Origin: Coraliomargarita sp.
GTDB lineage: Bacteria > Verrucomicrobiota > Verrucomicrobiia > Opitutales > Coraliomargaritaceae
Length of the DNA: 64,000 nucleotides
NCBI GenBank assembly: GCA_965216325.1
Contig: OZ244160.1
Location: 1,248,001-1,312,000, forward strand
Reading direction: 5' to 3'
Each line of letters opens with the position of its first letter. The stretch's first letter is position 1. Positions 51,527-55,133 of the stretch are shown piece after piece. Under the pieces are notes generated by a model. That model saw only the letters and a program-made list of their open reading frames with translations, did not search any database and was not told the DNA's origin. The position numbers and the translations under genes were made by a program.

Positions 51527-51796
51527 ATGGAAGCAATACGATACTCGACAGGCGAAATCGTAAAGAAAGGCGATCAAGTCGTGATCACCCATTCACTGGC
51601 TTCCAGACTTATTTCGATCCTAACACTTAAGCCTAAAGGAAAAACAGAAAAAGGAACTGTTGTAGGAGTCTACGATCCCGATCAGCCAATAATTCCAAAT
51701 GGAGAAAATGAGTATGGGATCTGCATCAAGTATCCGGATGGCCATTGGAGCTGGGGAGTCCCAGGAAGCGAAACCAAACTTAAACGAAGAAACTAA
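51527..51796 (+). CDS. Hypothetical cassette protein (89 aa)
   Basis: AT-rich ORF starting 7 nt after GTTCGGT and ending 3 nt before ACCGAAC. Confidence 0.75.
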   Translation: MEAIRYSTGEIVKKGDQVVITHSLASRLISILTLKPKGKTEKGTVVGVYDPDQPIIPNGENEYGICIKYPDGHWSWGVPGSETKLKRRN

Positions 51797-51799
51797 AAC

Positions 51800-51855
51800 A
51801 CCGAACCCTGAAGTTATCAATCGCGCGCAGCCGCGTTGATAACTGATTGTTGAAC
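51800..51855 (+). other. attC-like site 1
   Basis: ACCGAAC-cctga-AGTTATCAA...TTGATAACT-gatt-GTTGAAC. Confidence 0.75.
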
Positions 51856-52154
51856 AAGCCCGCCCTTGGATTAACGGCGCGGCTTAGTATATGCGAAACG
51901 CTTTTGGCGGCACTGCTGGAGGGGCGTTCGGATCGACGCGGCTAGGAGATTTGTAAATCTCAAGCTGCGGCAGGCATGTGGTTTTCCGGCATCATGCCGT
52001 AAAACCACATCAGCACAGAGAGTTGGTGTGGGCGCAGCTAAATAATGGCGTTTTCGTATCCACGCTACGGATACATCCCAAAAACGGGCACAAGCAAGCA
52101 CGGCCCAAATCTGATGGGATTCGGGGCTGCGGCCTGTCTGTTGAACACGGTTGA

Positions 52155-53258
52155 TCATTTGCGGTAAAGTAAGGCGGTGCTCAGCGGTGGGCCACGGACT
52201 GGACGGAGCTTGCCGACGCGGTGCAGCTGCCCCTCGCAACAAGGACAACGCAGAGGCTGTTCTTCAGGTAGTTGGATCGCAGGTGCACGGCCGCCGAGCA
52301 GGAAGCGCAGCCTGCGGTATTTATCCCGCGCGGCAGCTGAGAGGGTGCCATAGTGCCGCACGCGTGTCAGCCCCTTGGGCAGAACATGCAGCAGCCAGCG
52401 GCGTATCAGCTCGGCGGGCTCAAGAGCCATCAGCCTGCGCTGGCCCGTAGCCGAATCGGTCCACCATAGCCGCACACGCCCTTGCGCATCGTAACCAGCC
52501 AGACGTTCTTCACTGAAGGCGCTCTTGCCCACATACGCCGCGAGGTAGCGTAGTGCACGTTTGCCACGACCAACCGGTTGAACGTTCACGTTCCAATCCA
52601 TACGCGCGAGTTGTGGATCCAGTTCAGCAGACCGGCCCGGATGTTTCTCGCGCAACGCACGCAGGAACTGGTCGCGATAGCTGCGCGCCAGCGCGGCATA
52701 CGGCAACAGGTAGTTCTCGTGCTTGGCGCGGATTACTTCGCATCCGCTCTGGCTGAGTGCAGCGGCAGGCACGAGCACGTGCACATGCGGGTGATACTGC
52801 ACTTGCCGTGTCCACGTATGCAGCACCGCCACAAAGCCCGGCTCGCCACCAAAGTGCTTCGGATTGGCAAACAGTTCTTTGATCGCTCCAGAGCTGGCCG
52901 CGAACAACAACTGATAGGCGACCCGGTCGTAGCGCAGGAAGAACCCGCGCAGTTGCTCGGGCACCGTGAAGGTCAGCATGAAGTATGGCACCGGTAAGCG
53001 GCGAGCCTGTTGGCGTGCTGACCACAGCTGCTGCGTGCGCCCTCCACAACTCGGACAGGCTCGATGGTTGCAGCTGTGATACACATAGTGCTCACGCTCG
53101 CAACTGGCACACAGGTGCACATGCCCGCCCAATCTAGACGTGCGACAACTCAAGACGGCTTCGACTGCTCGCCAGTGTGCGGCAGGGATCTTGTGTGCCC
53201 CGCCGCGCGCGCTGACATACTCCGGCCAATGCCGCCGCAGTAGATCGGCCAGCCTCAA
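52155..53258 (-). CDS. IS91-family (Y2 HUH) transposase with N-terminal Zn-binding domain
   Basis: CRTSRLGG..C..C, HSCNHRACPSC, LHTW, HPHVH (HUH), YLAAY (YxxxY), VRHYG; TTG start overlaps the recombinase TGA. Confidence 0.93.
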   Translation of the reverse strand: MRLADLLRRHWPEYVSARGGAHKIPAAHWRAVEAVLSCRTSRLGGHVHLCASCEREHYVYHSCNHRACPSCGGRTQQLWSARQQARRLPVPYFMLTFTVPEQLRGFFLRYDRVAYQLLFAASSGAIKELFANPKHFGGEPGFVAVLHTWTRQVQYHPHVHVLVPAAALSQSGCEVIRAKHENYLLPYAALARSYRDQFLRALREKHPGRSAELDPQLARMDWNVNVQPVGRGKRALRYLAAYVGKSAFSEERLAGYDAQGRVRLWWTDSATGQRRLMALEPAELIRRWLLHVLPKGLTRVRHYGTLSAAARDKYRRLRFLLGGRAPAIQLPEEQPLRCPCCEGQLHRVGKLRPVRGPPLSTALLYRK

Positions 53259-54220
53259 CGCTTGCTGCGCTTCGACAAGGCCGGAGCGATCACACTGTCA
53301 AACAGTGCGCTCTGGCTCTGGCGGCCACCTTCTTCACTTAGCTCGGTTACATGCAGATACACCAGCGTGCTCTTCAGTTCCGAGTGGCCGAGATAGCGAC
53401 TGACCTGACGAATCGACACCCCGTCCTCCAGCAAATGTGTGGCAAAACTATGCCGCAAGGTATGCACCGTGAAGTGCTTGTTGATGCCACTATTGGCGCG
53501 GATGATCCGCATCGCCATCTCCAGCGCCGAGCTGCTCATCGGCTTGGCGCTGCGGTGCATCGCCTGCGCCTGAGAGATGCCTGACTGCTTCCAGCCGCGC
53601 CCCACGCCAGGGAACAGCCAGTCCGGATTGCGGTGGCACTTATAAAATGCCCGCAACCGCTTGACCATTGCCGGGCAAATCGGCACCTCACGCGCCTTGT
53701 TGCCCTTGCCATGGCGCACGCGAACGACGCCGCGTCCAGAGTGGATATCCGTCGGCTTGAGCTGCAAGGCCTCCTGTAAACGCAAACCACAGTGATAGAT
53801 CAGCGAGAGCACCGCCCGAAAGCGACCCTCATGCACACAGGCCAGCACACGCCGCACCTCGTCGCGCGTGAGCACGCTCGGCAAAGGCTCGCGCCGCTGC
53901 AGCGTGAACTCCGACCACAGCTTCCACTCCCGGGCCAGCACATCACGGTAAAGCGTCCGAATCGGCACCAGCGCCTGATTCACCGTTGACGCGGCCAGCT
54001 TTTGGTCGTCGCGCAGGTAGATCAGATAGTCCAACACCTGACGTTCCGATAGACGGCGCAACCCCGGGCCCTTCGGTTGGTAGTGCTCGCCCAAGCGATT
54101 GACCCAATCCAGATAAGCCTTACGACTACGAGGCGAGTGAGCTTTGCTATGGACATGCGCATAGAACTGTTGATACGTTTGCGAACACTGAGTCTTTGAT
54201 GATTTGGTATTTTTTTTCAT
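53255..54220 (-). CDS. Tyrosine recombinase with SAM-like N-terminal domain, no integron-specific insertion
   Basis: STVNQA, LPSVLT, GLR, GKGNK, HTLRHSFATHLL, LGH, catalytic Y in LVY. Confidence 0.93.
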   Translation of the reverse strand: MKKNTKSSKTQCSQTYQQFYAHVHSKAHSPRSRKAYLDWVNRLGEHYQPKGPGLRRLSERQVLDYLIYLRDDQKLAASTVNQALVPIRTLYRDVLAREWKLWSEFTLQRREPLPSVLTRDEVRRVLACVHEGRFRAVLSLIYHCGLRLQEALQLKPTDIHSGRGVVRVRHGKGNKAREVPICPAMVKRLRAFYKCHRNPDWLFPGVGRGWKQSGISQAQAMHRSAKPMSSSALEMAMRIIRANSGINKHFTVHTLRHSFATHLLEDGVSIRQVSRYLGHSELKSTLVYLHVTELSEEGGRQSQSALFDSVIAPALSKRSKR

Positions 54221-54444
54221 CCGGGCAGGTTGGGGCAACTCAGCCTAGCCCGGAACTTTTGACTTTAGAAACCACCCACCAAGACGCCCAAGCACTTAAC
54301 CAACAGCCGCCGCGCAGCGGCTTTGTTCAACCAGACGCATTGAGCAACGGCTATACTTACGTCAGATTCTGGGTGATCGAGCTGTTTTTGATCCTTCTGG
54401 TGGCCATAGCAAGCTTGCCGATCATCCTCCCACACTTCCGGAAG

Positions 54445-54515
54445 ACAGATCAAGGCGGAGTGATCAACTCCGAGTCGCTACGCTCCTCTACTTGATCATG
54501 CTCCACGCTTTGGCT
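54445..54515 (+). other. Degenerate attC-like site 2
   Basis: GGAG-TGATCAA...TTGATCA-tg-CTCC arms; both core boxes altered (ACAGATC; GCTTTGGCT). Confidence 0.55.
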
Positions 54516-54565: not shown

Positions 54566-54808
54566 ATGACTACTGTCACAGCAACTAAAGCGAGAAATAG
54601 CCTTTATAGCTTAATTGATGAAGCGAATGAATCGCACATCCCCATTCAAATTACAGGGAAGCGAGGTAATGCTGTGCTGGTTTCTGAAGATGATTGGAGA
54701 GCAATCTCCGAAACCATTCATCTCAGCATGATTCCTGGCATGATCGAATCGATCAAAGAAGGAATGAATGAGGAAATTGAAGACTGCAGCGACACTTTAG
54801 AATGGTGA
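54566..54808 (+). CDS. yefM: Phd/YefM family antitoxin
   Basis: ATKARNSLYSLIDE, PIQITGKRGNAVLVSEDDW, ETIHL. Confidence 0.9.
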   Translation: MTTVTATKARNSLYSLIDEANESHIPIQITGKRGNAVLVSEDDWRAISETIHLSMIPGMIESIKEGMNEEIEDCSDTLEW

Positions 54809-55068
54809 ACTATAAACTTGTTTTCACTAAACAAGCACTGAAGGACGCAAAGAAACTCTCAAAAAGTAACCTCAGGAAAAAAGCTGAAGACTTACTGGAA
54901 ATTCTAAAAGAGAATCCCTTCAAGAAACCGCCCGAATACGAAGCTCTCGTTGGCGATCTTCAGGGGAGCTATTCAAGACGAATAAACATACAGCACCGTA
55001 TTGTTTACCAAGTCTACGAAGAAGCGAGAATAGTGAAGGTTATCCGTATGTAGACTCACTACGGATAA
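54802..55068 (+). pseudogene. yoeB: Txe/YoeB family toxin with premature TAG at 55051-55053
   Basis: YEALVGDLQGSYSRRINIQHRIVY; reads KVIRM*THYG* where the family usually has MWTHYE. Confidence 0.8.
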
Positions 55069-55076
55069 TAGAAATG

Positions 55077-55133
55077 AGCCAACGAGTCGTCAGGGGACAA
55101 GGCCTAAAGGCGCGCCCAGACTCCACGTTCGAG
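55077..55133 (+). other. attC-like site 3
   Basis: AGCCAAC-GAGTCgTcaGGG...CCCAGACTC-cac-GTTCGAG with unpaired bases in the left arm. Confidence 0.7.

Follow-up and report, generated by a model that had tools for sequence, protein, structure and literature searches.

The stretch of DNA analysed here, hereafter the window, comprises 64,000 nucleotides of the Coraliomargarita sp. genome (assembly GCA_965216325.1, contig OZ244160.1, positions 1,248,001 to 1,312,000, forward strand); positions below refer to it unless the genome is named. We identified in the window an insertion sequence of 2525 bp (51807-54331) that carries two genes on the minus strand, a tyrosine recombinase gene (int) and, downstream of it, an IS91-family transposase gene (tnpA), and that interrupts an attC site in a cluster of integron cassettes. 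Its extent is defined by three copies in the genome, by a repeat contig in public sequencing runs, by conserved termini and by a metagenomic relative (L105) in which removing the element from the sequence restores the frame of the interrupted gene. We propose, with moderate confidence, that this insertion sequence is autonomous, belongs to the integrase-carrying subgroup of the IS91 family, homes to integron attC sites and is inserted by its HUH-Y2 transposase in the manner set out below.

The tnpA gene (52155-53258, minus strand) encodes a protein of 367 amino acids that Pfam and NCBIfam domains identify as an IS91-family HUH-Y2 transposase. It matches the profiles Y2_Tnp (PF04986, 4e-43) and Zn_Tnp_IS91 (PF14319, 5e-29) and scores 339 bits against NF033538 (transpos_IS91), for which the cut-off is 125. 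Its translation contains HVH and YxxxY, which we take to be the HUH and Y2 motifs. The int gene (53255-54238, minus strand) is an open reading frame (ORF) of 327 codons with a likely ATG start at 54220, and its product combines a Phage_integrase domain (Pfam, 5e-36) with an N-terminal SAM-like domain. The two genes overlap by the tetranucleotide TTGA (53255-53258), which is common to the int stop codon TGA and the tnpA start codon TTG, so the coupling of a tyrosine recombinase to a Y2 HUH transposase described in an earlier reading of this DNA (the original prediction) is present as stated. The recombinase retains the conserved catalytic positions and, judged from their sequences, both enzymes look catalytically intact.

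The best curated family for the recombinase is that of the integron integrases (TIGR02249), which it matches in two stretches with 188.9 bits, short of the cut-off of 265. An alignment with five integron integrases (IntI) revealed that it lacks their insertion of about 32 amino acids, as the original prediction had noted, and in both respects it is unlike IntI. In a tree of 92 recombinases, IntI form a clade of their own (SH-like approximate likelihood ratio test support, SH-aLRT, of 100) and the XerC/D-like proteins are cleanly separate, while the IS91-linked recombinases fall into at least two other clades on an unresolved backbone. The IS91-linked recombinases have been described as an integron-like subgroup without the IntI insertion (bioRxiv 10.1101/542381). 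Downstream of the LFP motif, IntI and the clade of the window recombinase have in common a segment of about 16 residues, which is missing from the other IS91-linked recombinases and the Xer proteins in the same alignment. The clade of the window recombinase therefore looks intermediate in layout, with the 16-residue segment present and the 32-residue IntI insertion absent.

Among close relatives of the element, int is the better conserved of the two genes (about 81-82% identity, against 69-71% for tnpA), and the divergence of int and tnpA is parallel over 21 distant pairs (of 79 loci). As the recombinase is conserved, keeps its catalytic residues and diverges in step with the transposase, we consider it a working part of the element, and one that is probably essential to it.

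The single-contig genome of 3.06 Mb (G000) contains three copies of the element, which are mutually 99-100% identical: the window copy, copy B and copy C. Their identity spans approximately 51806 to 54331 and begins 43 nt to the left of position 51849, where a 2483-bp unit had been proposed to start. Right of 54331, the three copies resemble one another only as attC sites do generally. The 50 nt left of 51849, which include a 31-nt hairpin (51813-51843), occur three times genome-wide, each time beside the element, and metagenomic relatives with about 72% DNA identity carry both termini, this left stretch included, nearly letter for letter. In public runs of the same organism, the repeat forms one Logan contig (51806-54336) that has about three times the depth of its flanks (1193 against 367-391 in run X3) and three different flanks on each side. 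The copies, the 50-nt stretch, the relatives and the repeat contig together place the unit at 51807-54331, with an uncertainty of 1-3 nt due to GTT/AAC at both junctions. Because the hairpin is conserved with the element in all three copies and in the relatives, the supposed neighbouring site attC-1, to which the box GTTGAAC at 51849 had been assigned as a core, is the element's own end.

Two features of individual copies or cultures deserve mention. Copy C (G000 2841897-2844466) has an extra T, and hence a frameshift, in the T run matching window 54203-54211, which is an A run on the int strand just past the likely int start. No such indel was listed in the assembled contigs of the public runs, and the extra T could reflect a mistake in the assembly, a genuine knock-out or a slippery run. 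In run X1 only, a contig exits the element at 52616 into unrelated sequence, and the depth to the right of this point is about 125-171 compared with 98. This suggests that the X1 culture holds an extra partial copy with int and part of tnpA.

The ends are organized as follows. The ori-side tail (51807-51855, minus strand) consists of a 6-nt spacer, the hairpin at 51813-51843 (13 bp, one bulged base), a 5-nt spacer and the box GTTGAAC (51849-51855), and it is adjoined by a second subterminal palindrome, AAGCC..GGCTT (51856-51885). The ter-side end (54305-54331, minus strand) has a hairpin, AGCCGC..GCGGCT (54305-54322), and the terminal box GTTCAAC (54325-54331). Both boxes and their adjacent hairpins are thus where the original prediction placed them. 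Read on the tnpA strand, the order is flank, GTTGAAC, AAA, hairpin, int, tnpA, palindrome 1, GTTCAAC, 5 nt, palindrome 2, 6 nt and target GTTN; the terminal GTTG of this strand lies beside the ter hairpin.

The original prediction took this layout to be unusual for IS91, but it agrees with the description of the family in PMC13181058. According to that account, members insert without duplication, with CTTG or GTTC adjoining the ori end, and have one or two subterminal palindromes at ori and one at ter, by the cleavage tetranucleotide (GTTC in IS801/IS1294). Both single- and double-stranded circles are described, only the bottom-strand circle being inserted, and IS91 itself has an upstream ORF that overlaps the tnpA start (PMC13181058). 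The window element shares with the family the HUH-Y2 transposase with its zinc-binding N-terminus, the absence of duplication (as deduced from L105), GTTN by the end downstream of tnpA, one ter palindrome, two ori palindromes and a ter tetranucleotide, GTTG, that resembles the target. The stop codon of its upstream ORF overlaps the tnpA start, as that of orf121 does in the same account of IS91 (PMC13181058). The int gene also has precedents in the family, ISShvi3 having been named as an IS91 member with a tyrosine recombinase gene upstream of tnpA (PMC9229058).

To describe the target, we defined the attC family of the host from 14 uninterrupted sites of the genome, which encodes three integron integrases above the curated cut-off (340-358 bits). 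These sites have the classical form, in which an R'' box with AAC at its end is followed by an unpaired spacer of 5 nt, an L stem that has a single extrahelical base, a variable loop, a second 5-nt spacer and an R' box starting with GTT; an ATC variant of R'' is present in three uninterrupted attC sites of the genome. The covariation score of the family is 0.309 compared with 0.152 in shuffles, none of 500 of which reached it, and 0.06-0.10 in slid controls. A covariance model built from the 14 sites (R1) detects 21 attC sites genome-wide at E <= 0.01, and intact sites score 43-72 bits. Simple pattern and folding scans yielded either nothing or 9,316 noisy candidates, and nhmmer and the covariance model were used instead.

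All three copies sit between the AAC of an attC R'' box and the 5-nt spacer, with int and tnpA antisense to the cassettes, that is, at one position and in one orientation of attC. The target's own R'', which remains on the left, reads ACCGAAC for the window copy, CCTAAC for copy C and ACACATC for copy B, and in run X5 GAGAAC stands at the R'' position left of the element. On the right, the terminal GTTCAAC, a perfect RYYYAAC, replaces the target R'' and now acts as the R'' of the attC site that follows; the attC left arm reported to the right of 54331 was confirmed. With R1, the hybrid right-hand sites of copies B and C reach 54 and 46.6 bits, values that fall among those of intact sites. The tetranucleotides adjoining the ori end are GTTC (window copy, L105 and run X5), GTTG (relatives L101/L102 and L106), GTTA (copy C and the relative G120) and GATG (copy B). 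The genome contains 41,532 occurrences of [GT]GTT, 3,434 of CT[GT]GTT and 303 of CG.CT[GT]GTT. Given these 303-41,532 motif sites, the presence of three of three copies on 21 attC sites is far beyond chance, whichever motif is assumed.

The association with attC extends to relatives. R1 detected an inverted attC flush with the terminus in four of the nine metagenomic relatives whose 5' terminus lies on the contig: L103 (E 1e-6), L108 (7e-5, truncated at the end of its contig), L106 (1e-3, another attC lying 390 nt upstream) and L111 (8e-3). As R1 models one attC family, foreign to these samples, its sensitivity on them is low. In L101 and L102, a GCTAAC/GCCAAC box is visible by eye at the correct distance. 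A marine metagenome run holds a copy of the element that has no differences over most of the left arm and a fourth left flank, ending in GAAC. The closest whole-genome relative, G120, comes from the same class as the window's genome and has 47-48% protein identity; its 5' flank is attC-like and antisense to the attC sites of the same contig (E 0.018, or 0.12 in a larger search). The tie of the element to attC suggested in the original prediction is therefore found, at the same spot and in the same orientation, in three of three genome copies and at least four metagenomic relatives, and more weakly in G120. L101 and L102 are near-identical to each other and have the same ori-end flank and different ter-end flanks, with differing attC-like sequences; this is the pattern that cassette reshuffling or one-ended events beside the element would give.

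One relative is located elsewhere. L105 (81% recombinase identity) lies in an alpha-L-rhamnosidase gene at ..GGATG|GTTC.., without attC. Profile positions 3-298 (six-hairpin domain) are encoded upstream of the element, and positions 298-339 and the C-terminal domain downstream. Removing GTTGAAC...TTCAGG restores the reading frame of the rhamnosidase, with no duplication and no loss, and a split this precise, in which nothing is gained or lost, is the insertion signature of IS91, IS801 and IS1294. The expectation that the ends of homologues always lie at attC is accordingly borne out by the three copies and by L103, L106, L108 and L111, and fails for L105; homologues at GTTC unrelated to attC, which the original prediction named as evidence against it, are found to the extent of this one relative.

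L105 also bears on a view in which attC is not actively targeted at all, any GTTN being hit and only the copies in harmless places surviving. L105 shows that a plain GTTC can be used, attC would be a neutral landing place, and the genome holds only three copies. Against this, the same nucleotide and orientation were found in all three, on 21 attC sites as opposed to 41,532 [GT]GTT sites; even if only a tenth of the latter were harmless, the probability of this by chance would be below 1e-6, and the same spot is occupied in at least four relatives from other samples (and, less clearly, in G120). We consider survival in harmless places alone very improbable.

More distant relatives indicate how far the attC habit reaches. 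A scan of genome contigs with general patterns from the recombinase alignment found relatives that are only 27-40% identical, with int-tnpA pairs at 21 of 79 loci. The end layout recurs in distant int-tnpA pairs of many phyla, with a terminal GAAC.AA.CCGC hairpin on one side and, on the other, the inverse box and then a tail of 50-120 nt that contains a hairpin. The flanks of the distant pairs inspected by eye are not attC-like, and L044 and L053 gave no R1 match. A relative in Oceanirhabdus, present in three copies, differs in its longer tail, and its flanks do not resemble attC; the precise position of its 5' boundary is ambiguous. As far as tested, the end design belongs to the subgroup, and the attC habit to the clade of the window element, down to about 48% identity. 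Among 400 other Verrucomicrobiota genomes, a close recombinase was found in only two. A sister clade with 54% identity was not found in 5 + 401 Acidobacteriota genomes, where few candidates per genome were scored, so that this is no evidence of absence, and plasmid records yielded only relatives with at most 38% identity.

The insertion pattern to be explained is one of insertion at the R''/spacer border, antisense to the cassettes, without target duplication (from L105) and with GTTN at the end downstream of tnpA. In our preferred mechanism, the HUH-Y2 transposase would nick the ori end, displace one strand by rolling-circle replication and close it into a single-stranded circle, which the same enzyme would insert into the top strand of attC, following the AAC of R''. 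If the inserted strand is antisense to tnpA, as reported for IS91, it would be the plus strand of the window, and hence the attC top strand. Homing would follow from the arrangement of the target, in which AAC, 5-6 nt and a hairpin copy the geometry of the element's own ori-ter junction: the cut would fall after AAC in both the junction (GTTCAAC|) and the target (RYYYAAC|), with a hairpin 5-6 nt later in each. The recombinase may contribute the choice of target or strand, the handling of the circle, or control, as Orf121 does in IS91.

The same geometry has a further aspect. When the ends of the element are joined in silico, either strand folds into a 7-bp outer stem (GTTCAAC/GTTGAAC), an internal loop with 4-5 nt per side, a stem of 13 bp that contains one bulged base, and a 6-nt loop; the outer stem can be extended into GC-rich flanking arms. 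The fold has an energy of -14.7 to -15 kcal/mol over 56 nt (z of about -5.5). The modelled joined ends reproduce the topology of attC: an unpaired spacer separates the R stem from an L stem, which bears an extrahelical base and is capped by a loop. The inner hairpin is retained in L105 and G120, where the letters differ by compensatory changes and the bulge is kept, and this persistence despite altered letters argues for selection on the structure. With R1, which represents only one attC family of the host, the element's hairpin goes unscored (a maximum of 5.8 bits for 51700-52000, filters off). The element end is thus a mimic of attC in shape that lies outside the host attC family. In the G120 element (L129:1398-1553), the ori-side module of box, 5-nt spacer, hairpin and 6-nt spacer is present three times in tandem, with a period of 52 nt and 99% matches. 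The units begin with GTTTCAAC and end with TTGAAG, and the target GTTAGGG follows. The array resembles the outcome of a solo ori module re-inserting beside itself, an event that either enzyme could have carried out.

The attC-like fold admits a second mechanism, that of the original prediction corrected for the boundaries, in which the HUH enzyme only makes the single-stranded circle and the recombinase exchanges the folded junction with the folded attC top strand at AA|C of R'', replication resolving the product. Comparable cases are IntI, which acts on the bottom strands of attC, and the CTX phage, whose folded single-stranded genome is integrated at dif by the Xer recombinases of the host. 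The phage offers a working analogy, with an HUH-made single-stranded circle whose folded hairpin is the substrate of a tyrosine recombinase; it differs in using host recombinases and a dif target. Several observations fit such an exchange. The joined ends fold with the topology of host attC, the integrated form resembles a reciprocal exchange at two R'' boxes with a complete hybrid site on each side, and the right-hand hybrid sites score like real attC. The recombinase belongs to the integron-like subgroup, keeps its catalytic residues and is better conserved than the transposase, and a Y2 transposase alone gives no reason for its constant retention.

Copy B narrows the crossover under either mechanism. 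Its target has ATC where the element has AAC, and the T is kept at the left junction and the A at the right, which limits the crossover to three phosphodiester positions, AAC| and AA|C among them. The interval thus contains the AA|C at which the recombinase would cut, although recombinase action on copy B would require cleavage at a G|AT core. Other evidence also speaks against recombinase-mediated insertion: according to PMC13181058, canonical IS91 uses GTTC/CTTG without any recombinase; L105 occupies a plain GTTC within a gene, where there is no hairpin; the distant int-tnpA elements inspected share the end layout without attC-like flanks; and R1 gives no score to the element hairpin. We prefer the transposase as the inserting enzyme on account of L105, which sits at a plain GTTC, and of the end layout, which is canonical. 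We regard insertion by the recombinase as a possibility of lesser probability, which the unexplained retention of the recombinase keeps alive.

A third explanation is that the element is an ordinary integron cassette, two genes and an attC, moved by the integron integrases of the host. The genome has three such integrases; the distance to one of them is 3.7 kb for copy B, and to another about 10 kb for copy C, each copy sitting within the cassette array that runs away from the integrase gene, and the joined ends have attC topology. The element indeed resembles cassettes and their enzymes in its integron-like recombinase and its location in cassette arrays. Unlike cassettes, it has its junctions on the R'' side and not at G|TT of R', its own site is not recognized by the host attC model, and it carries two enzymes of its own for its mobility. 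The integrated element is also not permuted as a cassette would be, as its hairpin and GTTCAAC box lie at opposite ends. L105 occupies a rhamnosidase gene and no attC-like flank was seen in the distant relatives inspected. We therefore find it hard to credit that the element is an ordinary cassette.

Several observations weigh against transposase-driven homing to attC, our preferred interpretation. The right-hand attC of the window copy scores only 15.4 bits (E 0.18) with R1, a result of the site being cut down. Copy B adjoins GATG, contrary to the rule of a T at position 2 given for IS91 in PMC13181058, and its crossover interval fits a tyrosine-recombinase cut at AA|C as well. The flank of L102 reaches only E 0.63 with R1, in a match that is not flush with the terminus, and no R1 match was found at the flanks of L101, L104 and L107. 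No circle junction and no empty site was seen in the assembled contigs of the public runs. If the transposase acted alone, a retained, conserved and apparently intact recombinase would have no assigned job, and purifying selection against insertions in genes may make the preference for attC look stronger than it is.

The window copy belongs to a small cassette cluster without an integrase. The cassette whose attC took the element encodes an 89-aa ORF without a Pfam match (51527-51796, plus strand), and the R'' box ACCGAAC of the interrupted attC (51800-51806, plus strand) was left behind on the left of the element. The rest of this attC (54332-54350, plus strand), consisting of the spacer CAGAC, L'' GCATTGAGC and the start of the loop, is fused to a cassette remnant (54351-54469). 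The remnant is 87% identical to a cassette by the third integrase and corresponds to the 3' part of its ORF, which is whole beside the integron integrase at G000 2766502. Since the remnant is joined straight to the first half of an attC, half an attC and the cassette's start were lost by deletion. An attC site with degenerate R boxes follows (54445-54513, plus strand; 47.4 bits with R1), then a Phd/YefM-YoeB/ParE toxin-antitoxin cassette (54566-55053, plus strand) and the attC that closes the cluster (55077-55133, plus strand; 49.7 bits).

The GC-skew profile of the genome is irregular, and the three copies have no common orientation relative to the skew. The cumulative skew increases over about 2.3 Mb, decreases over only about 0.75 Mb (1.1-1.85 Mb) and fails to return to zero, which points to either very unequal replichores or rearrangement on a large scale; the window is in the decreasing part.

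Outside the window, four further attC sites (G000 550312-550378, 2273965-2274021, 2846279-2846344 and approximately 2849544-2849624) have their R'' swapped for a conserved sequence, which in reverse complement is the 5' end of a group II intron (GTGTGCC...). These intron 5' ends lie within a few nucleotides of the spot used by the element, and the R''/spacer border of attC is hence used by two unrelated parasites in one genome.

Two kinds of attC parasite are known, the IS1111-attC insertion sequences of the IS110 family and the group IIC-attC introns, and both insert site-specifically and in one orientation. The window element is like them in being specific for attC in a single orientation. 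Their enzymes are a DEDD transposase and a reverse transcriptase/ribozyme, whereas the window element has an HUH transposase and a tyrosine recombinase and, unlike either, swaps the R'' box for its own. It departs from the IS91 family in being strongly site- and orientation-specific for the attC inverse core, and in the subterminal boxes GTTCAAC/GTTGAAC that give its joined ends an attC-like fold. IS91 members with a tyrosine recombinase gene upstream of tnpA are present in ISfinder. Full-text searches on IS91 with attC and integrase topics found no paper stating an attC target rule for IS91-type elements. The targeting of attC by an IS91-type element looks new, and the recombinase-carrying IS91 subgroup was already known.

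If our interpretation is correct, IS91-type elements would be a third kind of attC parasite and a new player in integron biology, one that combines a rolling-circle transposase with the closest known kin of the integron integrase, and the long-unexplained recombinase of some IS91 members would gain a testable job. The replacement of R'' may leave the interrupted attC usable and add a second attC-like site, so that cassette arrays could be reshuffled. A bolder proposal, which we put forward as speculation and judge rather unlikely, is that IS91-integrase elements are a self-contained single-strand system, with an HUH-made circle, an attC-like hairpin and a top-strand exchange at AA|C of R'' by the IntI-like recombinase, in which the helix insertion that lets IntI choose the bottom strand is absent. 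The IS91-linked recombinases are, by published accounts, the closest relatives of IntI, and on this proposal the integrase and attC sites could have evolved from elements of this type. Insertions would also leave an attC-like site fit for use on both sides, and the host IntI could later move the body of the element as a cassette. The element is, in any case, a tangible system in which to study how tyrosine recombinases acquired the ability to use folded single strands.

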